A DNA stretch of 39,960 nt, from positions 1 to 39,960 of IMG/VR virus record IMGVR_UViG_3300036982_000507; one strand, given 5' to 3'. Below the pieces are notes generated by a model. That model was not told where the DNA came from. It did no database searches and saw only the letters and a list, made by a program, of their open reading frames with translations. Below are positions 11,787 through 31,853 of the stretch, piece by piece; within the stretch, counting starts at the first letter, position 1; each line of letters opens with the position of its first letter. Origin of the DNA: a virus (lineage: Duplodnaviria; Caudoviricetes). The translations under genes were made by a program, and so were the position numbers.

Positions 11787-11814
11787 TTGACTCGTGTCGA
11801 TCACGCGCTACACT
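11787..11814 (+). promoter_or_regulatory. Sigma70-type early promoter
   Basis: TTGACT-16nt-TACACT; the spacer holds the inverted repeat CGTG-TCGAT-CACG. Confidence 0.7.
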
Positions 11815-20026: not shown

Positions 20027-20054
20027 ATCATAACGCGCGTCACTAGGGTGTCAA
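20027..20054 (-). promoter_or_regulatory. Near-consensus sigma70 promoter for the sigma-like gene
   Basis: TTGACA-16nt-TATGAT on the minus strand, overlapping the stop codon of the giant gene. Confidence 0.8.
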
Positions 20055-23000
20055 TTCGTTGGACACACGGATTACACGTTTCATGGCCCGTGCGCGTGCC
20101 GCAAACAACGCCTCGCGTTGTTCGGGCGTTGCCCCCTTGCCGTCTTTGCGGAGTTTGCGCAACTCCTTTTCGGTCGACTCGACCACGCGGGCCAACGAAA
20201 TGTTGAGCGGGTTGATGCCCCGTTCGATAATCGCCTCTTTGACGGGGTACGACACCTCGGGGTCTAGCAACGCTTCGGTGCGACGCAAGTCGGGCATGAC
20301 CCGTGCGCTGATCCCTTGGTACGTTTCGGCCACGGCGCGCGTGTCCTGCGACGCGTCGCCCGAAAACGAACGGACCAGTGGGATGTCGGTACGTTCCACA
20401 GGCTGGTCGCTCAGCGCAATCTTGGCCAGTCGGTCCATTGTGCGGCCAAACCCGCTGCCGTAGTACCCGACAAGGTATTGGAGTGTGTTGGGGCTGTAGT
20501 CCATGTACCCCTGCCCACCCCCCTCAAACATATCACCACCGCCGAGGCTGTTGAACCCTTGCGCAGCGTCAATGTACGTCTGACTGGTGCCCTCAAAGTA
20601 CGAGAACGCGTCGGTTTCCGTCTGCACCCCAAATGTCTTTGGAAAGATTGGTCGGCCCATGAAATTCTGATTCAGCCCAATCTCAGCCATCGGACGAATC
20701 ATGGTCGGAAACAGCGCAGCCACCAAGTTGCCCGTGCCTGTGGTAATACCCGAACCGCCCATTGGGTTGAACGAGTTCATGGCGTCGGTGACCATCCCCG
20801 ACACCATGTTGCCTACCGACTTGTTGCCGAACGCCGTGTCGGCCGCGCGAACACCTGCCGAGTACAGCACGTTGAATCCGTAGGCCAGCGGGATCTTTAT
20901 GTACTTGCCCGTGCCACGCGGGTCCATCAGAATAATGTTGGACGCCTTCTCGTAATCAGGGATTGCGTCCCACCGCTTGCCGCCCGTTTCCTCGTCGTCG
21001 CCGCCAAGCGCGCGAAGCATTGCGGTCACCATCCCAAACATTGCCAACGACGGGGCTATTGACGCGGCGCGCCGCGTCGCCCTGCCCACGTTGACGCTTC
21101 CTTGGACGCTTGCGTTCAAGAACATGTAAAATGTGTTCAGCGTCGGCTTACGCTTGCCGCCTTTGCCAAAGTCAACCGTGATGTCGCGTGCGGCCAACGC
21201 CGCCTGCTCGGCGCTTGATCCTGTTGCACGACGTTGCTCAAATTGGGCCAACCGCGTCGCAGTTTCGGCGGCTGTAAAGAACGCGGGGTACCACCCAAGC
21301 AGTGTACGTGTCAGCGTGCGGTCGTTTGGATCACGCCGTGTTACACGGGCCGCAAGCGCGTCAAAGTCGGTGTCTTTGGTTTCCAAATCGTTGCGGCCCC
21401 AGTACACCTGATCGCCGCCCGCGCGCACAAAGTTTGCGTACGACCGCGTTGGCCGCGTGGGATCGTTCCACGCATCGGTAAACACGTTGAGAAATGCACG
21501 CGGGTACCGCGTCAGCATTTCCGCCGTGTCCCGCGCGCCATGACTCGCCGTGTTGACCATTGACCCCGCCATAATGTCGCGGACCAAGTTAACAGGCGCA
21601 AACTCAGGAGCGCCCATGCCCGTGGTAAAGAATCGCCACACGTTGTTGACGTGGTTAAGCCCCCGCGCGAGCGTGCCAATGTCTGCGTTTGGCACCGTCA
21701 TCGCGGTGGCCAAACGGGGGTTGTTGATGCGGACAACTACCATGTCACCCGCTTCGTAGTTGTGGCCGTTGATGGTGATTGGTGCGTTTACGTACGCGCC
21801 GAAATGCCGTGGTTCCGACATCCAATTGCCGTCGTGCACGGTGCGGACGACGCCGTCTACATTGCGCTGAATAGTTGGTCGGACCACCACCGCCATCGAG
21901 GGGTCGTTTACCAGTGTCACCAAACGAACAAACCGTTGTCCGATTTCGTTGCGGGCAACCCGTTTCATCGTGTCTTCGTGCAAGAACCCGACCTGCGACG
22001 TTACCCCCTCGGCCCGTGACCCACGGCCCAATCGTTCGGGCATTGCACGGCTTTGGGTTGACATCCCACGGCCAAACACGTTGCCCCCGTCAAAGTCTTC
22101 AAACAGTTCGTCAAATGGTCGCGCGGGCGCGCCCCGCAACGGCACGTAGTGCGTGTACCGCGTGGTAAGCAACGTGTGCGTTTCGTTGGTGATGAGCCCC
22201 GCGTCGCGGCGAAGATCAAGCCCCGCACGCAACAACTCACGCCAGTCCTCGGCGATGCGGTTCATCTCGCCGTACTGGCCAGTGGCGCGTGCTTGGTTGA
22301 TGATTTGCTGCGCGTCAGCCGTCATCATCCCCGTGCCACCGTCGGGAAACCGTGGGTTGATTGTCGCAATGTACGCGTTGCCGTTGTTTACCGCGTGCTG
22401 CGCCGTCAGAAAGTTGTCCATCGCCTCAAGCGAAATGTTGTGCTCGGACATGTCGCGCAAGGTGTTTGCGTACTCGCGTGTCGCGGCCTGCTGCATGGCG
22501 CCAAGACGGCCTGTAAGCACACGCACCCCGAGATACGGGTTGGCAGGGTCGGGCAGCGCCACCCCGCTGGTTTCCTGCCAGTTGTCGGCGTACCGACGCA
22601 ACTCGTCGTACTTGTCGACAAATTGCAGCGTGGCTTCGTCTTTGACGCCGCGTACGCCTTCACGCATCGACATGCGGATGGGCACCTCGTTGTGAAACAG
22701 GTCTGGGTACGCGTTGACAACGGCTGCGGGCTGGAGCCGCAACGAACGACGGATGTCTGCGTCCTTGGGGCTGTAGTCCCCGTTGTTGTTTGCAACAGAC
22801 TTGACCGCCGTGTCGTCCCACAAGATCACAGCGGTGCGTTTGCCGTAGATCCGTTGCATTGCTTCAATGCGTTCATTGCTTGTCTTTTCGTACGCGTTCA
22901 TGCCCGACATTTCCCATTGGGCAAACTCATCATTGAGTTCAAACAATTCGGCCGCGCTTTCTTGTTGCGCTGCGGCAACCATAAAGTCGCGGTCGTCATG

Positions 23001-26000
23001 ATACGTTTCGCTGTCGGGGTTGAGGTTGGCGGAGGCGGCGTACGCGTTTGCCCCCTTTCCCTCGATTGTATTTTCGTACGTGATTCCGTCGTACCCAAGA
23101 TTGTTCAACATATTGCGCACATAATCACGGCTGAACGATTGGTTTCCGTTTGGGTGCTGGTCGTTGTTAGTCATTACCGATTCAAACCCTGACTGGTTGT
23201 ACCGCAAAAACACCTCTGCGCCTGCTTCGGGAATGCCAAGCCCCGTGTAAATTTCCATAAGCGCGTCGTCCATTGTTTTTGTCGAAATTATGTCCACCTG
23301 CTTCAGACCCTTGAGCACGTTGAACGCAGTCCACGACCCCATGTCCTCGACCTGTGCCACGCGGGTTGCGCGGGCGTAGACAGGAAACAGCACCGCTCCG
23401 TCGGGACTGTTGCGGAATGGTGAATTGTACACCCGCAAACGGCGGTCAAAGAAATCTGTCGCTTGGGCAAACGGGCCAAGGTGCAACCCAAACTGATCGG
23501 CGCTCATGTTCACGTCAAACTGGGTGTGGTGGCGGTACCCGCCATGAAACCAAATGTCGTTGGGGTGGATCCCGTTCAACGCGTTGCCGTTGTCAAAGTA
23601 CTTTGTAAACGCTGGGGTCGTTGGCTTTGAATACGGCGACGCGACCAGTTTCTTGTACAGGGTGGTCACCCCCCTACGCGTTTGCGCAGCCACGTTGACC
23701 AGACTGAACTCCTTTCTGTAGTCGCGTTCCTTCGCATCAATATTATTTGAAAATGGTGCAAGGGTTACAGCGTCTTCGATGACGCCTAAGTCGCGCAGAC
23801 TCATCCGCGTGCCGTGCGTCTCGGCCAACGTTACAATGTGCGCACGGCCTTTGGGCCCAACAATTGGGTCCTCGTACCACGGTGCAATGCGGGTGCCGTC
23901 GGCACGCTCGCTGTCCCGAGTGACCATGAAATCTGGCGGCTTCTCGCCACGCACAGGCTTGCCCTTTGCGTCGAGCGGCGGCGCCCAATTCATCTTGGCC
24001 CACTTGGTGGTAGAAAGCGCTTTGGTAAACAGACCAAAGTGGGCCGCGTCGAACATAAACGACTGGCCGTCGATGGTGTACTTGTGCGACGGCTTTAGCA
24101 CGCCGTCGGCGTCACGCGTGTACCCGTACTCGGCGCCAAAGGCATAGGTGTCGTATTGACCTTCTTTGGCCCACACCCCCACCATCTGCTGCTCACCCGT
24201 CGCAATCATTTGAAGCAGCCCGTCGAGAGTTTTGTGGCTGGCCTCTTGGTCCGACGCGCCCACCCAGTTCAACCAATGCTCGGCGCCGTGGTTAGCGTGC
24301 CGCGTCATCTCGGGCTGCGTCTTCAGCAGCGGGCCGAACACGCGGTTGGGATCAATGGCCCGCTCCACCGCTTCGTAGATGGCGATGCCACGCGCGCCGT
24401 TGAACAGCGTCGCCAGCCCCCCAACCTTCTTGGTTTCAACGCTAAACGTAACAGGCAACGCCGCAGGGTCTTCGGCCACGCGGCGTGCCGTTTCGGCCTT
24501 GGCCTCGGCCGTGGCCTCGGCGACCAACACGCTTGTGAGTTCGCGCTTTGCGGCGGCGTGGGCCAATTTGTCGCCGTTGAAATCGGGCAACCGCACCTCG
24601 CGGACCATCTCGTCGTCGATGACGACTTGCAGGGCCACCGTGTTGCCGTCGTACACGTTGACAAATCGTCCGTCGCGGTTCCAATGGTCCGCCACACGCA
24701 CGCGGTCGTACACCGACCCGTCCGTCTTTCCCGCAACAAGCGCCGAGAATGAAATCACCTTGTTGTCGATGCCAAGCGAGCCGCCAAGCCGCGTGAACAC
24801 GCGGCGGACCTTCTTTGCTGTCGCGGTTGGGCTGGCCATTGCGTTGTGCAAATGGATTACCCCTGTTTCCGTTACCCCGTCAATTGTTACCTGCTTGCCG
24901 ATGTTGGCAAGAAACGACTTGCCAAAGGCGTTGCCGTTGTGCGTGGCCCCCGCCCCTGGGGTGCCGTTTGCGCGCTTGACGTCGCCGTCTTTGTCCCGAA
25001 GCACTTCTCCGTCAACGCCAATCACGTCGTACCGCGTGCGCTCAAACATTGCGTCGACAAATCTCAGCCACTCACCCGTGTCTGCCTTGGTCCAGACGCC
25101 AGCCACGGCGCGGTCGACAAACGTTTGATACGTTTCGCCCTTTGAGTTTGTGAAATTGACCAGATCAATAAACAAACTTTCTTGCACGCGTGGCGACACG
25201 CCGCGCGACATGAATCCCCACATAGCAAGCGCGACGGTGTGGTGTGGCTTTACCTGTCCCGTGGCGTAGAACGCGCGCAACCGCTGCGCCATGTCGAGCC
25301 CGTGGACGGCGTCGTCTACCATGCCCTGACTCAGCCGCCCGCCGTTGGCGCGGAGCGCCATGTTCCTCTGCATCCCCGCGCTGTTGTTTGCGAGGTCTGA
25401 AATCAAGAAATCGGGCAACACGGGGATGTCGCGCGAGCCGTACAAATCGGCAAAGAATCGTTCCGTGGCGTCACGCGACGTAAACGCGTCGGGATGCCGT
25501 TCCAACAACGCGTCAACTTCTACAAGCGAACGTTCTGCGTTGGCCATGCTGGTCTTTGCGGGGATCTTGTACCCCCCCTCAAACTGCTGCATGTTGCCGC
25601 GATACCGCGTCAGGAACTGGCGGTCGAGTCCGTGCTTTCGGTTGACGGACCGACTGGCGAGTTCTGCGATGAGGAGGTCTTTGACTTGAGGCGCTTCGGC
25701 TTTGGCGAATTCGCCGAGCCACCCATCGAGATCGATGTCGAAGCCTTCGTCTTGGACGATTTCAACGATTGTGGCAGCAGGCTTGACCCAAAGATCCCAT
25801 GTCGTTTTGCCGACTCGGGATCGACTGCCAGCCCCCGTTGCGCGAGGATTTCGTTGAACTTTGCCCAAGACATCGAAGTCTCCAATCGTAGTGTAAGTGC
25901 TTTGAACCTGCGCAAACTCCACGGACATTCCGCGTGTTGCAGCAATTTGCGTTGCGTTGTCGACAAACGTTTGACGCGACGACGTTTGTCCGTCATAGTC

Positions 26001-29000
26001 GCCGTACACGGCCCACACGCCACGCTTTGACCCCAGTGTAGTCGCGCCGTTGAACTTTGCACCAACATCGGACAAGAGGCCACGCAATGTGGGCTCATCA
26101 AGCGGGTTGGTGGTATTTGCCACAAATATTGCTGCCAACACCTGCTCTGTTTCGGGCACGTTCTTTGTCGCGGGGCCGACGGTGATTGCGGCCTTCTGCA
26201 ACAGCAACGACCCCAACACCTCGGCGACTCGGTGCGTGTCAACGTGGTTCAACCCGCCCACGTGGATCCGCATCGACCGCTCGGTGCGTCCCTCAAAGTA
26301 TCCCAACACCTCTTCGATGTTTGGCTTGTTTACACCAATTTGGTTGCCAAGCATGGCTTGCAGTTGGGTGTTGAACTCCACCCCCGTAACCGCGTCGCGC
26401 ACCCGTTCGTTCACGCTGTCGTACGCGGCCTGCTCGTTGAACAGCGGGTCTGCGCTGACGTCGGGACGGATGATGTGCTTTGACAGAATTGGTTGAGCGG
26501 TGGGCTCCACGCTCATGCTGATCCGACGGGTGTCGGTTACCGACTGCACGTCGTCTTTGACATTCTTGCGCCGCAACACAGACGCCGCGCGTGCCTGAGC
26601 CGCCGTGTTTCGCCGCTGCAACACAGCCTTTGTAGGTTGCGTGTCGCCCCCCTGCTCGCGCTGCGAATACATGATGCGTTCGTCGGCGGTTGGGTTGGCG
26701 TTGAAATACCCCTTCACCTGATTGGGGTTAAACACAACAACGTCTTTGCCAAATTGGCCGTAGTCACGAATAATTCCGTCGTAACCCAATTCGTCTTGCA
26801 GCAATTTACGCCACTTTGACCGATCAGTAAGATCAAGTCCGCGCGCGGTTGGGCCTAACTCTCGCGCAAGCACCTTTGCCACTTGGTCAACTACGTCTTC
26901 GGTGCTATTCTCAAGAATTAACGGACGACGGATATTTGCAACAGCGGGAACAATTGCAGACTGGTTGACAAATTTTCCAGAATCTGGATCCTCCGCAAAT
27001 TCGTTTGCGCGCCGAGGGTCTGTTGTCAGGTAAATTCCCCCGCCGATTTGGCCGTTGATAGAACTAATAAACGTGTCAAACTCAGCACGCGTTCCGTGAT
27101 ACAACGGAATCAACGCGCCGTCGGCGTCAACAACTTTGGACCCCTTTGCCCAGACTCGCATCTTGGGCGTCATGTCGTAGTTGTTGAGCGGGCGAAGCGA
27201 TGACCGCGACTCAACAGGGGTGTCGCGCTGCGAATACAGCGCCGTCAAATCGGTAGGCGTTGCCGCCATTTTTTGATCGGCGTATCCAACGCCTTGTTTC
27301 AAATCGTCCATCCATTTGGCGTAGCGTGGATCGGATTGTCCCCACACCGACCCGTCGGCGTTGCGCCGATTCGGCCCGTAGTTCAGCCACGAATTTTGCC
27401 CACGTGTTTCGGTTGCCATTGCCTGACGGGCTAACGGGGAGAACATCGACGCGTGCGATCGGTACGCGTTCTCTTCGCCACGTGGACCAAATTGAAATCC
27501 CTCGGCGCTGTGGCCAAGGATGTCGTGCACCCCGCGAAACAAATCGTTAAACGTTTGTTGGTACACGTCGCCCGCGCTGTCCAACACAGGGACACCCGCG
27601 TCGGCCAACAACACGTTGTTGTTGATTGCGTCCGCAAGCAACGACGGGTTTGACCCAAACGACATGGCCTCGTTTGGGTTGATTGTCTTAAAGTAGAACA
27701 CGCGCTTGTTCTTGCGCACGTCGTCAATCATGTCGGCAGAGTCTGCGTATGGCTGGCCCTCGCCAGCCCACGGGATGATTTCGTAGCCACGGTCTTTGAG
27801 GTACTGGTACTGGTCAAGCGTTTCCTCGCTGAACGCTTTGTACGCGGCACGTGTCTCGGGATTGGTGGTTGACGCGGGCTGTGATTCAAACCAATCCGCA
27901 TACCGCTTTGCAAACGACTCGTCAACCTCGGCGTACGTGTCTTCAATTGGTTCGGCTTTGATCCCACGGTCGCGCATGTAATCGTTGCGAACGGACCGCA
28001 CATCGTCGTTTGCCTCGCGCCGTCCTGCGCGGTCGCGCAGCGAGAACGCAATCTCTTCGGACGGTGTTTGCCTAAGCATCCGCGTCCGCTCAATGCGGGC
28101 CACGGTGTTGGGCGCAACGGGCTCGGTTGGCGATTCGCCACGGATGATGGCCATCGCCTGTATTGCGTTGCGTCTGCGAATTGCAATGGCTTCCAAGTCT
28201 GGCGCTGCTGTTTGCACCACACCTGTGTCGGACTCGGTTGGCACCGCGTCGGGCGTTGTGGCCACGGTGTCGCGCATCGCGTCGGGCACCTTGCGGATGT
28301 TTGACGGGATGCGATTGGGTTGCATCACGCGGCTGCTTGGCGACAGTTGCGCGCTGGTGTTTGCCAACACGGGGGCCACGCTTGCAAGCGCGGTCATTGC
28401 ACTGGCCAACAACCCTGCGCGTTGCTCGGGTGGCGCAGACTGTGCCTGCTGCAACAACGCCGCCGCGTCGCTCATCTTCTTGTCGTCGTCGCCCGCAATT
28501 GCGCCCGACATACTCGGCGTTGCCGCGTCGCGCAGCGAGAACGCAATGGGGTTTGGTGGTTTGCCAACAGGGGCGGGCGTGGCCGTCGGTGTAGCAGTCG
28601 GCACAGCGGTCGGCGCAGCGGTTGGTGTAGCCGTTGGCGCGGCGGTCACGTCAACAGGCGCGGCACGTGGTGCCGATGGCGTTGGCGGACGCATCGCGGC
28701 CTGCAACGCGGCGCGCGCGTTGACACGTTTCTGGTTTGTTTCAAGATCTTTGCGCACCGCCTCGGCGACGCGGTCGCTGAACTTTGAGTGAATTTGCAAC
28801 TGCTCTTCGCGCACGCCGTCGAGCCGTTGCCGAATTTCAAACAACACCTGCTGCGCTTCGGGGCCAAAGAATCCGTTCTTGACCAACGCGTTTGCCATCC
28901 ACCGCGTAAACCGTTTGTCGGCGCGGCCCTGCGCGTCGCGATACAGCGCTTCGTATTCCGCAGCCATTACTGTGGCGCTGCCTGCGGTGCGGTTTGCCGT

Positions 29001-31853
29001 CGTGGCTTGGCTTTCGGCGGCAAATGCTTGCACCGATTGCTTCGCGCGTTGCGCGCCACCCGCAGCGTCAACCTGTTCGGCTTGCTCTGCCGTGGCCGTG
29101 CCCGCCATCACGTCGTTTGCGGCAGCGGCCAGCCCACGGTAGTACGCAATGACTTGCGGCAGGCTCATGTTCTTGACGTTGTCGTCAACTTGCCTCATGT
29201 ACTCGGCGCCGCCACGCATGGCAAACGCGGGGTCTATTTGCAGCAACTTTGCGACGAACTGGGCGCCTGCTGCTGAACGTGACGCGGTGCGGTGCCGTGT
29301 TTCGTGCATCGCAATCGCAAACGCGTTGCGCGCCGTAAAGGCGGTGCCGTTCTCCCGAATTAAGTATACGCCGTCGGGGCTAGATTGTGATAGATACGCG
29401 CCATCGGCAAGCCCGTCTCGTTCAATAGTGCGCGACGTGCCGTCATTCTGCTTGATGGTGAACACCACCCGCGCGTTGAGCACAGTTGCCTGCTGACCCG
29501 TGAGCCGTGCGATGTTACGCTCGCCGTCGGAAAGGTCGGCGTCGGCCACGCGGACCAACGACACAACAGACGTGACATCGGCGTTGGTCGCGTCGCCAAT
29601 TTCATCGGCGCTAAGCAGTTTGGATTCAAACGGCGCGTCTTGTTTGACCCGCACCCCCTTGCGCTTGGCCTGCGACCCCTGCGCCGCGCTGGTCATTTCA
29701 AGGTGAAGCGCCTTGATGCCGCGCGCCTCGTTACGTTTACTTTGCGGACGGGAGAACTGTGGCGTGGTGTTGGTCTGCACCGCGTCGGCGTCAATCTGCC
29801 GTTGAATCTGATCCGCAACAGGCGCGGTAACGCCACCCTCTGTGGCGGTAACCGTCAACCCGTTTCGTACCGCAAGCGACGCAATCGCTGGCGCTGCTTC
29901 AAGCATTTCGCCGTTGTCGGAATACGGAATCACGTCCACGATGTGGCCCGCGTTGTTGCGCAGCGTCAACACGCCCGCAAGCACCGTTCCGTTGTTAAGT
30001 TCGGGAAATCCTGTCAACGCTTCAACGTTGCCGTCTTCGATGTTGGCGCGGGCTTCGGCTTCAGTGCCATTTGCAACGTACACGTGCGTGCCGTTTGACC
30101 TTGTGATAGGGATGTTGCCAATTCCCAACGCGTTCATGCGGTCGCGGACGTCTTTGGTAAGCGTAGTACCAACGTCGTCTTCTTTGACAAACATTGCGGT
30201 GCGGTCGCCGTTGGCCAGTTGCTCCACTTGGAACATGGCCATGCTGCTGCCGCGCGCGGGCTGCGCATTGCGGTTGAGGTGCAACAGGTCTGGCTTGTTG
30301 GCCGACGACTCAGACTTGCGATTCATGCGCCCCTGCGCGTCTGTTTCCTGTGTCTCGACAATTGCCCGTGTCACAAACTCAGTGCCTTTGCGAACCTCGG
30401 CGGCAACGCCTTTGCGGATAGCGCGCTCATCCCGTGCGCCCTTTGAAATGATGTGGTGCCCGCCGCCAAACAAGCCGCCCGCGTAGGCGCCAACGCGGAG
30501 CGAGTGCCACACATTCTCGTCAATGAACAACTGCTTGGGATCCGAAGAGAATAACGGGCGATCGATTGTGTAAAAATCATTGTTTGGGGCAAACAATGTC
30601 TGGCTCAACACGTCTTGCACCTGTTCGCCAAGATGCGGCGCACCTTCTTCAAGCCCTTCCACTGTTGCGGGCACCCCAACCACCGCCGCAACTTTCTTGA
30701 TCACGCCTGCGGGGCCGCGCTGGCGCATCATGCTCTTGTTCAAGTTGCTGAGCATGGTGCCGACCGACGTGGCACTGGCCTTGCCCGCAACTTTGCGGCC
30801 CAACGCCGTGCCGAGAAACGCGGCTTGGGCCGTGTCGCCGACGTACTCGGATCCGTATTCAAACGCCGCGCCGATCACGCCGTACATTTCCATCTCGTTG
30901 AACGTTGGCATGGCGGGCGGTTTGATGCCCATTTGCTCAGCGGTTAGCAGTTGTTGCTTGTAGATGTCCCACCGCCCTTGTTTGGCGTCGGAATACCCCG
31001 CCATCGCAAACGGCAGCGCAAGCACTGCGCGGGCTTCGGGCGTCGGCGCAAGCATCGACGGCAGCGATGCGGGCAACGACCCCGCAGCAGCGCCAAGATC
31101 GCCTGCAAACGTGTGCGCTGCGCCGCTAACAAACCCTGTTGGCGCGCCCAGCCGCTCAGACGCCAACACAGGCGCGTCGGGATCGCCTGCCAGATGCTGC
31201 GCGTAGCCGTCTACGTCAACAGCGTTGCCCGTGGCTTCGTTCAAATACATCGTGTCCACGGCGCGGCCAAACCGTTGGCCCGCTGCCATAGCGTCGGCCA
31301 TTCCCGCCATGCTTTGCACCATGCGCGCGGGGTCGTTGCGCCCCGTCCACCGCATACCCCCTGGCCCGTACACGTCGTACATCGAGAATCCGCCTGCGGC
31401 CACGCCGCCCGCAAACCCCTCGAAACTGGTGAGCGCGTTGCCAAGAAAGTTCTCAAACACCGCCACAGGCGCGGTTCGTTTCTGCGCTTGATACGAGTCC
31501 CATGCAATAGGCTTTAACCCCTTGAGAAACTGGTCGGCTTGCAGATCCGCAAACGCGTTCACGTCGTCGTCGTCGGACTGATACGCGCCGCCCAACGACG
31601 CCGCGTCGGCCTCGTTGTCGATAAACGAAACGCCCGCGTGCTTGGTCACGTCACGCATCAGTTGCAACGATTTTTGACGTGCCGCGTTCCACGCGCGGTC
31701 GTCGATGCCGTTCATCGCGTCGGCAATAAACGCCTTTGCGTCGGGGGATTCCAACGACCACCCGCTGTTGATGGCGTCCTGCGTCGCCTTTTGACGTGCG
31801 CGTTGACGGATGACATCGATTTGGCTTTGGGCGATGGGGGTGGGTGGGATCAT
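20043..31853 (-). CDS. Giant polyvalent virion/ejection protein (3936 aa): HExxH module, HDxxGH module, two ART-PolyVal-like modules, HhH-glycosylase-like module, C-terminal LPD38-like domain
   Basis: Uninterrupted ORF ending the ejection-protein cluster. Motifs: MHETRH; FRGVHDILGH...GPRGEENA...TETRGQNSW; LYHGT..FDTF...GIYLT...GYDGII; WFHG...GLHLG...GYDGITYEN; GIDNKVISF...YDRV...HWLNW; HYVPLRG, ARDITVDF, WDAIPDYEK, KIPLAYG, NQNFMGRPI. Confidence 0.9.
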   Translation of the reverse strand: MIPPTPIAQSQIDVIRQRARQKATQDAINSGWSLESPDAKAFIADAMNGIDDRAWNAARQKSLQLMRDVTKHAGVSFIDNEADAASLGGAYQSDDDDVNAFADLQADQFLKGLKPIAWDSYQAQKRTAPVAVFENFLGNALTSFEGFAGGVAAGGFSMYDVYGPGGMRWTGRNDPARMVQSMAGMADAMAAGQRFGRAVDTMYLNEATGNAVDVDGYAQHLAGDPDAPVLASERLGAPTGFVSGAAHTFAGDLGAAAGSLPASLPSMLAPTPEARAVLALPFAMAGYSDAKQGRWDIYKQQLLTAEQMGIKPPAMPTFNEMEMYGVIGAAFEYGSEYVGDTAQAAFLGTALGRKVAGKASATSVGTMLSNLNKSMMRQRGPAGVIKKVAAVVGVPATVEGLEEGAPHLGEQVQDVLSQTLFAPNNDFYTIDRPLFSSDPKQLFIDENVWHSLRVGAYAGGLFGGGHHIISKGARDERAIRKGVAAEVRKGTEFVTRAIVETQETDAQGRMNRKSESSANKPDLLHLNRNAQPARGSSMAMFQVEQLANGDRTAMFVKEDDVGTTLTKDVRDRMNALGIGNIPITRSNGTHVYVANGTEAEARANIEDGNVEALTGFPELNNGTVLAGVLTLRNNAGHIVDVIPYSDNGEMLEAAPAIASLAVRNGLTVTATEGGVTAPVADQIQRQIDADAVQTNTTPQFSRPQSKRNEARGIKALHLEMTSAAQGSQAKRKGVRVKQDAPFESKLLSADEIGDATNADVTSVVSLVRVADADLSDGERNIARLTGQQATVLNARVVFTIKQNDGTSRTIERDGLADGAYLSQSSPDGVYLIRENGTAFTARNAFAIAMHETRHRTASRSAAGAQFVAKLLQIDPAFAMRGGAEYMRQVDDNVKNMSLPQVIAYYRGLAAAANDVMAGTATAEQAEQVDAAGGAQRAKQSVQAFAAESQATTANRTAGSATVMAAEYEALYRDAQGRADKRFTRWMANALVKNGFFGPEAQQVLFEIRQRLDGVREEQLQIHSKFSDRVAEAVRKDLETNQKRVNARAALQAAMRPPTPSAPRAAPVDVTAAPTATPTAAPTAVPTATPTATPAPVGKPPNPIAFSLRDAATPSMSGAIAGDDDKKMSDAAALLQQAQSAPPEQRAGLLASAMTALASVAPVLANTSAQLSPSSRVMQPNRIPSNIRKVPDAMRDTVATTPDAVPTESDTGVVQTAAPDLEAIAIRRRNAIQAMAIIRGESPTEPVAPNTVARIERTRMLRQTPSEEIAFSLRDRAGRREANDDVRSVRNDYMRDRGIKAEPIEDTYAEVDESFAKRYADWFESQPASTTNPETRAAYKAFSEETLDQYQYLKDRGYEIIPWAGEGQPYADSADMIDDVRKNKRVFYFKTINPNEAMSFGSNPSLLADAINNNVLLADAGVPVLDSAGDVYQQTFNDLFRGVHDILGHSAEGFQFGPRGEENAYRSHASMFSPLARQAMATETRGQNSWLNYGPNRRNADGSVWGQSDPRYAKWMDDLKQGVGYADQKMAATPTDLTALYSQRDTPVESRSSLRPLNNYDMTPKMRVWAKGSKVVDADGALIPLYHGTRAEFDTFISSINGQIGGGIYLTTDPRRANEFAEDPDSGKFVNQSAIVPAVANIRRPLILENSTEDVVDQVAKVLARELGPTARGLDLTDRSKWRKLLQDELGYDGIIRDYGQFGKDVVVFNPNQVKGYFNANPTADERIMYSQREQGGDTQPTKAVLQRRNTAAQARAASVLRRKNVKDDVQSVTDTRRISMSVEPTAQPILSKHIIRPDVSADPLFNEQAAYDSVNERVRDAVTGVEFNTQLQAMLGNQIGVNKPNIEEVLGYFEGRTERSMRIHVGGLNHVDTHRVAEVLGSLLLQKAAITVGPATKNVPETEQVLAAIFVANTTNPLDEPTLRGLLSDVGAKFNGATTLGSKRGVWAVYGDYDGQTSSRQTFVDNATQIAATRGMSVEFAQVQSTYTTIGDFDVLGKVQRNPRATGAGSRSRVGKTTWDLWVKPAATIVEIVQDEGFDIDLDGWLGEFAKAEAPQVKDLLIAELASRSVNRKHGLDRQFLTRYRGNMQQFEGGYKIPAKTSMANAERSLVEVDALLERHPDAFTSRDATERFFADLYGSRDIPVLPDFLISDLANNSAGMQRNMALRANGGRLSQGMVDDAVHGLDMAQRLRAFYATGQVKPHHTVALAMWGFMSRGVSPRVQESLFIDLVNFTNSKGETYQTFVDRAVAGVWTKADTGEWLRFVDAMFERTRYDVIGVDGEVLRDKDGDVKRANGTPGAGATHNGNAFGKSFLANIGKQVTIDGVTETGVIHLHNAMASPTATAKKVRRVFTRLGGSLGIDNKVISFSALVAGKTDGSVYDRVRVADHWNRDGRFVNVYDGNTVALQVVIDDEMVREVRLPDFNGDKLAHAAAKRELTSVLVAEATAEAKAETARRVAEDPAALPVTFSVETKKVGGLATLFNGARGIAIYEAVERAIDPNRVFGPLLKTQPEMTRHANHGAEHWLNWVGASDQEASHKTLDGLLQMIATGEQQMVGVWAKEGQYDTYAFGAEYGYTRDADGVLKPSHKYTIDGQSFMFDAAHFGLFTKALSTTKWAKMNWAPPLDAKGKPVRGEKPPDFMVTRDSERADGTRIAPWYEDPIVGPKGRAHIVTLAETHGTRMSLRDLGVIEDAVTLAPFSNNIDAKERDYRKEFSLVNVAAQTRRGVTTLYKKLVASPYSKPTTPAFTKYFDNGNALNGIHPNDIWFHGGYRHHTQFDVNMSADQFGLHLGPFAQATDFFDRRLRVYNSPFRNSPDGAVLFPVYARATRVAQVEDMGSWTAFNVLKGLKQVDIISTKTMDDALMEIYTGLGIPEAGAEVFLRYNQSGFESVMTNNDQHPNGNQSFSRDYVRNMLNNLGYDGITYENTIEGKGANAYAASANLNPDSETYHDDRDFMVAAAQQESAAELFELNDEFAQWEMSGMNAYEKTSNERIEAMQRIYGKRTAVILWDDTAVKSVANNNGDYSPKDADIRRSLRLQPAAVVNAYPDLFHNEVPIRMSMREGVRGVKDEATLQFVDKYDELRRYADNWQETSGVALPDPANPYLGVRVLTGRLGAMQQAATREYANTLRDMSEHNISLEAMDNFLTAQHAVNNGNAYIATINPRFPDGGTGMMTADAQQIINQARATGQYGEMNRIAEDWRELLRAGLDLRRDAGLITNETHTLLTTRYTHYVPLRGAPARPFDELFEDFDGGNVFGRGMSTQSRAMPERLGRGSRAEGVTSQVGFLHEDTMKRVARNEIGQRFVRLVTLVNDPSMAVVVRPTIQRNVDGVVRTVHDGNWMSEPRHFGAYVNAPITINGHNYEAGDMVVVRINNPRLATAMTVPNADIGTLARGLNHVNNVWRFFTTGMGAPEFAPVNLVRDIMAGSMVNTASHGARDTAEMLTRYPRAFLNVFTDAWNDPTRPTRSYANFVRAGGDQVYWGRNDLETKDTDFDALAARVTRRDPNDRTLTRTLLGWYPAFFTAAETATRLAQFEQRRATGSSAEQAALAARDITVDFGKGGKRKPTLNTFYMFLNASVQGSVNVGRATRRAASIAPSLAMFGMVTAMLRALGGDDEETGGKRWDAIPDYEKASNIILMDPRGTGKYIKIPLAYGFNVLYSAGVRAADTAFGNKSVGNMVSGMVTDAMNSFNPMGGSGITTGTGNLVAALFPTMIRPMAEIGLNQNFMGRPIFPKTFGVQTETDAFSYFEGTSQTYIDAAQGFNSLGGGDMFEGGGQGYMDYSPNTLQYLVGYYGSGFGRTMDRLAKIALSDQPVERTDIPLVRSFSGDASQDTRAVAETYQGISARVMPDLRRTEALLDPEVSYPVKEAIIERGINPLNISLARVVESTEKELRKLRKDGKGATPEQREALFAARARAMKRVIRVSNELTP
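25610..25873 (-). CDS. Possible nested out-of-frame ORF (87 aa, MSWAKFNEILAQRG...) inside the giant gene
   Basis: TACACT-acgatt-GGAG-acttcg-ATG; amphipathic N-terminus followed by a Ser/Lys-rich tail. No convincing -35. Confidence 0.4.
   Translation of the reverse strand: MSWAKFNEILAQRGLAVDPESAKRHGIFGSSLLPQSLKSSKTKASTSISMGGSANSPKPKRLKSKTSSSQNSPVGPSTESTDSTASS
26656..27238. repeat. 16-bp exact direct repeat encoding YSQR, bracketing the first ART-like module
   Basis: TCGCGCTGCGAATACA at 26656-26671 and 27223-27238. Confidence 0.85.
28032..28547. repeat. 21-bp exact direct repeat encoding IAFSLRD
   Basis: GTCGCGCAGCGAGAACGCAAT at 28032-28052 and 28527-28547. Confidence 0.9.

Follow-up and report, generated by a model that had tools for sequence, protein, structure and literature searches.

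The DNA analysed here (the window) is the whole 39,960-base contig of IMG/VR virus record IMGVR_UViG_3300036982_000507, which comes from a tailed phage and carries portal, large and small terminase, major head and tail-fibre genes on its minus strand and genes of recombination or replication type on its plus strand. One minus-strand gene encodes a giant protein in which Pfam finds ART-PolyVal at amino acids (aa) 1576-1722 and LPD38 at aa 3626-3817; disparate enzyme domains and LPD domains in one chain, encoded among virion genes, mark it as a large polyvalent protein. Within this 3,936-codon open reading frame (ORF), and on the same strand, lies a short ORF in the +1 frame (P0002), which is the subject of this work. 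A preliminary description, made from the letters alone, had noticed it as an out-of-frame ORF of 87 codons opened by GGAG, a 6-nucleotide (nt) spacer and ATG; the arrangement is present as described and both of the translations quoted there are correct. The comparative evidence given below confirms the nested ORF as a real overprinted gene with its own ribosome-binding site, and associates its product with a predicted S-adenosylmethionine (SAM)-lyase-like cassette encoded immediately upstream.

An out-of-frame gene in a linker of the giant gene

In a codon model trained on the window's own genes, the +1 frame beats the main frame at a single place in the giant gene, the centre of which is main codon 1997 and where the log-likelihood ratio over 30 codons falls to -14.1 (gene mean +21, standard deviation 7). 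The +1 signal is limited to approximately the first 36 codons of the nested ORF, and the Ser/Thr-rich tail of the peptide is in the main a shadow of the giant gene's frame. For the core we predict an amphipathic helix (inferred from the hydrophobic moment), a near-invariant Gly14, a loop and a short hydrophobic C-terminal segment. Over the peptide the main frame is poorly conserved, and the linker that it encodes has a predicted local distance difference test score (pLDDT) below 50. When the codons of the window copy were redrawn 4,000 times with the main protein held fixed, GGAG and ATG appeared together in 2.1% of draws, and GGAG, ATG and 87 open codons in 0.025%.

Public contigs from four runs show no insertion or deletion across the nested-ORF stretch. 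One of them (X2), from another study, covers the whole stretch in one piece with seven substitutions and no gap, and another (X4) is identical to the window over 25622-25899; X1 may itself be the source of the window. A double frameshift introduced by assembly is ruled out by these independent contigs and by the relatives described below, which retain both frames.

The hexamer TACACT ahead of the Shine-Dalgarno sequence had been suggested as a -10 element. It is present in one of 31 copies of the locus, it occurs five times in the window, and a promoter scan gave no minus-strand match at the nested locus; a role as promoter of the nested gene is not supported. The copy at 11809, with which it had been compared, sits on the opposite (plus) strand.

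Table 1. Features of the nested gene and its surroundings in the window (all on the minus strand)
Feature	Position	Strand	Basis or remark
Host gene, 3,936-aa large polyvalent protein	20043..31853	-	Pfam and neighbouring virion genes
Upstream domain 1, aa 1775-1895, ferredoxin fold, predicted SAM-lyase-like	26169..26531	-	Model, fold searches
Upstream domain 2, aa about 1900-1990, second ferredoxin-like	25884..26156	-	Model, fold search
TACACT hexamer	25890..25895	-	Tyr-Thr codons of main frame; promoter role unsupported
Shine-Dalgarno GGAG	25880..25883	-	6-nt spacer to nested ATG
Nested +1-frame gene, 87 codons	25610..25873	-	ATG at 25873; TGA 25612-25610
Selected peptide core, codons 1 to about 36	25766..25873	-	Codon signal, synonymous constraint, frame comparison, alignment, codon-phase shift
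Main-frame linker over peptide, aa about 1999-2016	25806..25858	-	Arg/Gly-rich, poorly conserved, near-fixed length, pLDDT <50
Helical segment, aa about 2017-2075	25629..25805	-	Closes cassette, overlaps peptide tail; invariant Glu-Gly pair in 30/30
Downstream module, aa 2096-2688, predicted helix-hairpin-helix (HhH) DNA-glycosylase fold	23790..25568	-	Model pLDDT 83.7

Three further observations concern the window outside the nested locus. A second +1 ORF with a Shine-Dalgarno sequence and ATG, at 28003 (91 codons), has no +1 codon signal, takes its start from conserved main-frame residues and gives translations unlike protein; it was treated as chance. A second ART-like stretch (W-F-H-G-G ... 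G-L-H-L-G ... Y-D-G-I-T-Y-E-N) was spotted by eye at about 23730-23050 on the minus strand (main aa 2715-2935) and is absent from the Pfam output. At 11787-11814 on the plus strand, TTGACT, 16 nt and TACACT form a promoter-like site flanked by the inverted repeat GTTGACTC ... GAGTCAAC, which overlaps its -35; the site resembles an operator placed where the minus-strand and plus-strand gene blocks meet.

Conservation among relatives of the giant gene

A protein search gave 25 full-length relatives with 41-55% identity and seven more that share the downstream module alone. In the full-length relatives the main frame runs through a conserved Asp-Val-Leu/Phe-Gly (altered in two), then an Arg/Gly-rich, poorly conserved stretch of near-fixed length and then Trp-x-x-Trp, and it is uninterrupted in all relatives examined. 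DNA was fetched by means of a main-frame motif about 40 codons downstream, which is blind to the nested start. Eleven loci were obtained, from which L008 and L012 were dropped as unrelated pattern matches; in each of the nine true ones (six distinct types) GGAG and ATG are present and the +1 frame stays open for 86-93 codons. Full-length loci supplied further copies at 48, 38, 30 and 29% identity, and GGAG, ATG and the open frame are kept in all 12 distinct copies, the window included, down to about 29% identity. In synonymous redraws of the 12 copies, GGAG plus ATG arose in 2-24% and the full arrangement in 0.025-7.5% of draws, the copies being kin and these probabilities not independent. The Gly codon that carries GGAG is GGA in six of six full-length genes, and across these six genes the highest synonymous-codon conservation among 3,890 scanned windows falls at aa 1985-2029 (observed/expected 1.89; mean 1.22, standard deviation 0.15; z 4.4), where the loss of third-position excess is also strongest (z -3.4). 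Over codons 4-36 conservation is higher in the +1 frame, and over the tail it is higher in the main frame. The overprinted peptide put forward in the preliminary description is thus strongly supported: its ribosome-binding site and ATG are conserved, its frame is free of stops in the homologues, and its region tops the scan for synonymous-site constraint.

Two remarks on the material should be added. L006 and L017 derive from one contig of 39,586 bases in which the giant gene is split over the contig ends; in L017 it is also interrupted by a stop near aa 3482. L026 and L027 are contigs of metagenome-assembled genomes that may be binned phage.

A wider peptide family

Searching with a profile built from the 324 residues around the locus yielded 78 representatives, and a main-frame pattern taken from them matched 31 viral loci, of which 28 are true (L029, L039 and L056 were dropped as unrelated pattern matches). 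In all 28 an ATG lies 27-31 codons before the motif and opens a +1 frame; the Shine-Dalgarno sequence is GGAG, GAGG or AGGA in 24 and GGGG in the other four. Peptides of the distant clade share DHPxYSEG-S/P-I, and DHPxY is found in 18 of 19 distinct copies, with a synonymous-redraw chance of at most 0.004 in each. In 54 ungapped pairs from this clade, mismatches per codon at main positions 1, 2 and 3 are 0.30, 0.13 and 0.13 over the motif, compared with 0.46, 0.36 and 0.67 upstream; over the motif it is thus the +1 frame that has the freedom of the wobble position. Mean identity in the distant clade is 0.55 for the peptide, 0.43 for domain 1, 0.41 for domain 2 and 0.40 for the main frame over the peptide. 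The window peptide lacks DHPxY, a point against the inhibitor reading proposed below; it is joined to the DHPxY clade by position, by the helix-Gly-loop-hydrophobic layout and by the intermediates L022, L023 and L026.

The start codon of the peptide is spelled by different main-frame residues in different clades (Asp-Val, Asn-Glu, Tyr-Ala, Asp-Ala). This bears on the explanation of the nested ORF as an artefact, either of assembly or of amino-acid constraint in the main frame, in favour of which conserved main-frame Gly and Asp-Val codons supply GGAG and ATG in the window's clade, with a probability for both of 0.02-0.24 per copy. Taken with the independent contigs lacking any indel, the continuous main frame of the relatives and the synonymous nulls, the changing residues at the start make an artefact extremely improbable.

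A peptide profile search found 138 called protein clusters, with no functional name among the 120 listed; the peptide has no match in Pfam or PHROGs, and the ESM Atlas gave nothing for the L026 peptide. The peptide tails are long and variable (20-55 residues). One family member of 101 aa (P0155) is annotated in the chromosome of Desulfopila sp. IMCC35008. A frameshift or deletion has joined the nested peptide to the main frame in L079, a single case that may be natural or an assembly error. Such a fusion is what might be expected if the nested start served as a leader whose ribosomes shift -1 into the main frame and make the C-terminal half of the giant protein, and the fading of the +1 signal near codon 36, where main-frame constraint resumes, would also agree with this. 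We consider it very improbable, since slippery heptamers occur in two of 31 copies and at different places, the amino-acid motif is selected in the +1 frame, and L019 and L088 have little or no enzyme downstream.

The peptide travels with the upstream cassette

The peptide motif was used to search for further loci, and all 40 matches are nested within a long ORF in the -1 frame; 39 lie directly behind domains 1 and 2 by profile and the 40th behind a diverged form. The reciprocal search with a domain-1 motif gave 41 matches, comprising three false ones (L105, L108 and L116, unrelated patterns that were dropped), 36 full cassettes and two distant tandem domains. The peptide is present in all 36 full cassettes (weakest E 0.012), ten of which come from contigs outside the peptide profile, and some of the 36 keep the ATG without GGAG. 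These and the other locus sets share contigs, and their counts are not additive. At the two distant tandem domains (L101, L137) the peptide profile matches nothing, a point against the inhibitor reading proposed below. They also have no helical segment, and each has a short +1 ORF with a similar acidic-hydrophobic stretch, EE[ST]EI[IV]F[IV]P, which may be the peptide in a minimal form.

What follows the cassette is variable. Fifty-five proteins were classified, leaving out nine repeats or fragments, five without an anchor and those with fewer than 60 downstream residues: three modules unrelated to one another by BLAST follow in 40, seven and four proteins, one has no module, one has a JAB-like stretch (by eye) and two are fragments. 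The nested ORF is retained without the window's glycosylase in L019/L020; the glycosylase is found without the cassette and without such a nested ORF in L027, and, at the protein level, without the cassette in P0028-P0034. As the upstream context is constant and the downstream one varies, the nested gene belongs to the cassette, which as we delimit it is made up of domain 1, domain 2, the loop with the nested start, and the helical segment.

The downstream module of the window was labelled glycosylase-like in the preliminary description, and the fold searches support the label. The model is a two-lobed helical HhH fold that VIA aligns to the Thermotoga Tm1821 8-oxoguanine glycosylase (3n0u) over 207 of 209 residues (Z 14.5, root-mean-square deviation 3.3), and VIA rows 1-22 hold solely DNA glycosylases of the Tm1821 type or queuine salvage enzyme; Foldseek with this module gave no match. 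G-I-D-N-K-V and D-R are invariant in nine of nine downstream modules and may correspond to the catalytic Lys after the HhH motif and the downstream Asp. The first and third clusters of downstream modules (40 and four proteins) look glycosylase-like by their motifs. The peptide had been put forward as a possible immunity or inhibitor partner of the adjacent enzyme module. A glycosylase could damage the phage's own DNA, a glycosylase-like module follows 51 of the 55 classified cassettes (two types being judged by motif only) and L088 has a glycosylase-like neighbour upstream (by eye), and other nested ORFs of related genes, described below, also come before domains. Against these points, peptides of the DHPxY type stand before three modules that do not cluster together by BLAST, and before none, and the glycosylases of L027 and P0028-P0034 do without the cassette. 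The adjacent glycosylase is probably the wrong neighbour, and a role of the peptide as its inhibitor is quite unlikely.

The same counts bear on the idea of an independent small protein aimed at the host, such as an anti-defence protein, that hitch-hikes where overprinting is cheap. Embedding yields co-inheritance without any shared function, and other linkers of related giant genes hold several unrelated nested ORFs. No motif match among the 40, however, is free-standing or relocated, and none of the 36 full cassettes has lost the peptide, across very different clades and base compositions, which makes this explanation unlikely.

A predicted SAM-lyase-like domain in the cassette

Modelled without the peptide, the cassette has a pLDDT of about 80-95 over both domains, and domain 1 adopts a ferredoxin/PII-like beta-alpha-beta-beta-alpha-beta fold. 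The T3 and Svi3-3 SAM lyases are among its best natural PDB matches in Foldseek (probability 0.84-0.87, E 0.02-0.06; phage SAM lyases as a group 0.69-0.87, E 0.02-0.07), and VIA gives SAM lyases Z 7.8-8.1 (6znb: Z 8.1, root-mean-square deviation 3.5, 105 residues aligned). In a viral library, 18 larger proteins come first, those with names being from uncultured tailed phages, followed by small proteins of cultured phages that include an annotated SAM hydrolase (E 0.037). Two residues of domain 1, E1858 and Q1886, are invariant in 30 of 30 cassettes; by the secondary structure of the model, E1858 is at the start of beta3 and Q1886 in the alpha2-beta4 loop. In the passages of PMC12255297 that compare a SAM lyase with a SAM-AMP lyase, two residues alone are structurally conserved, a Glu ending the T-loop and a B-loop Gln, and Glu69 is described as critical in Svi3-3 (PMC7877911). 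An invariant Glu and Gln at places equivalent to those of the lyases is a stronger argument for likeness to SAM lyases than the scores. Sequence-based searches added nothing: a single-sequence search with the upstream domains gave no loci, the ESM Atlas nothing for these domains, GenBank phage records no match to cassette or glycosylase, and PDB sequence searches were empty.

Several points weigh against this assignment. The VIA Z of the SAM lyases is tied with that of unrelated ferredoxin folds, no single SAM-lyase score is significant alone, and Pfam PF23780 matches weakly in eight of 30 members (best E 0.004) and not in the window copy. Glu and Gln are 28 residues apart here and 35-37 apart in the solved enzymes, and in L088 and L019, where the nested ORF is retained, the Glu position is Asn or Ser by eye. 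Svi3-3 is described as a trimer with active sites between subunits, cleaving SAM to methylthioadenosine and homoserine lactone (PMC7877911); such a trimer is not obviously possible within a 3,900-residue chain. On balance, domain 1 is predicted from its model to be SAM-lyase-like, with the activity itself a prediction.

A proposed inhibitor of a putative virion-borne enzyme

We propose, at roughly even odds, that the peptide is an unpackaged inhibitor that silences a virion-bound SAM-lyase-like cassette in the producing cell. Translation would start internally at GGAG/ATG on the late mRNA of the giant gene, with no separate promoter, and the peptide would bind the SAM-lyase-like domain encoded just upstream and keep it off in the cell that builds the virions. 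The giant protein would enter the capsid and be injected together with the DNA, a route suggested for phage polyvalent proteins (PMC5512222), and the domain would deplete SAM at entry and blunt SAM-dependent defences such as type I restriction-modification and BREX, to the evasion of which SAM depletion by T3 is related in the passages of bioRxiv 2023.02.27.530186. An inhibitor would be needed because many enzyme copies late in infection would harm the producing cell, and a small one made together with the abundant late enzyme could meet the need; T3 SAMase is reported as toxic at higher expression (PMC7877911; bioRxiv 2023.02.27.530186). As a separate polypeptide the inhibitor would be left behind at packaging, and the enzyme would be live in the next host. 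With the gene overprinted in a loop, a module shuffled from one giant gene to another would bring its own safety catch along and leave the long frame intact.

Some considerations speak against an inhibitor. Physical embedding alone ensures co-inheritance, and linkage is no proof of binding; no methyltransferase was found among the window genes that might explain a need to spare SAM; most classified cassettes have a glycosylase-like module behind them; and the other nested ORFs of related genes precede domains. The same linkage to the cassette would be seen if the peptide were a positive partner of it, that is, a chaperone, a missing strand or subunit, or an activator that is perhaps co-packaged. 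Retention of the nested ORF in L088 and L019, where the presumed catalytic Glu is replaced, and the higher conservation of the peptide than of the domain in the distant clade would suit such a partner. The confident models of the cassette without the peptide argue the other way, and the variable tails suit a diffusible protein with dispensable ends equally well; we judge a positive partner rather unlikely.

Comparison with known systems and other nested frames

In phage lambda, Rz1 lies in the +1 frame of Rz. The present arrangement resembles Rz/Rz1 in that a longer phage gene encloses an out-of-frame gene that is on the same strand and has a start of its own, the products of the lambda genes being functionally paired (PMC6139136). 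It differs in that there are no lipoprotein or membrane features and no lysis cassette, the host is a 3,936-aa modular protein, the nested gene is tied to one shuffled module, and the pairing is putative. A second likeness is to the Rpn toxin-antitoxin systems, in which a small protein from an internal start is proposed to block the enzyme of the same gene; RpnS, however, is in frame, identical to the C-terminus of the toxin and part of a bacterial anti-phage system (PMC10327210), whereas the peptide here is out of frame (+1), unrelated to its host protein and phage-encoded, and its inhibition is putative.

As a giant multi-domain protein with ART-PolyVal and LPD38 encoded among virion genes, the host protein resembles the polyvalent proteins of PMC5512222. 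In the main text of that paper 'glycosylase', 'overlap', 'frameshift' and 'AdoMet' have no occurrences and 'nested' refers to a hairpin, and its passages on these proteins hold no nested gene or SAM-lyase-like cassette. Domain 1 resembles T3 gp0.3, Svi3-3 and the SAM-AMP lyases in its ferredoxin/PII-like fold, with Glu and Gln at matching model loops (PMC7877911, PMC12255297, bioRxiv 2023.02.27.530186). The known SAM lyases are small and stand-alone (PMC7877911, PMC12255297), whereas domain 1 forms part of a giant chain, joined there with a second ferredoxin-like domain and a helical segment, and is accompanied by a nested gene. The relevant passages of the same three sources describe no phage-encoded peptide inhibitor of a SAM lyase, and a literature search that covered few subscription papers and excluded supplements gave nothing on this peptide family or on nested genes in polyvalent proteins. 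The kind of arrangement, an embedded gene, is known; its setting and its likely partner here appear not to be in print.

Elsewhere in related giant genes, different linkers hold +1 ORFs that have a codon signal and are unrelated to the nested gene; two to four copies of each kind were checked. One kind lies before an 'NDLFR..HD..GH' domain, at main codon 1682 in L019, at about 2100 in L027 and about 598 codons after the motif in L041/L047, the L019 and L027 forms sharing EALRRLRV; the NDLFR domain of the window (aa about 1290-1530) has no such +1 signal. Further nested +1 ORFs with codon signal are found in L035 (-554 and +739 codons from the motif) and L046 (-432 and -764). In both loci one of them precedes an 'HFS..YGTG' domain; the other sites are in front of a metallopeptidase-like stretch and where a different domain ends. 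In L021 (main codon about 2765) and L024 (2329-2371), +1 ORFs are present in the linker after a glycosylase-like module, and these genes are without the SAM-lyase-like cassette.

The finding exposes a widespread family of small phage proteins that gene callers catch only occasionally, and it explains some of the Arg/Gly-rich linkers of fixed length in giant phage proteins as the shadow of another gene. A broader and more doubtful possibility is that giant virion genes hold a second, unannotated gene layer, in which each dangerous enzyme module would have an out-of-frame 'safety catch' in a loop, comparable to toxin-immunity pairs compressed into one reading frame; the present case would then be a virion-delivered SAM lyase with the first phage-encoded peptide inhibitor of such an enzyme, released by exclusion of the peptide from the capsid. 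If the inhibitor reading is true, it would explain how enzymes poisonous to the producing cell can be mass-produced and packaged, it would provide an enzyme and a peptide, of about 300 and 40 residues, whose pairing can be tested directly, and SAM depletion delivered by the virion would be an anti-defence route that acts before any phage gene is expressed.

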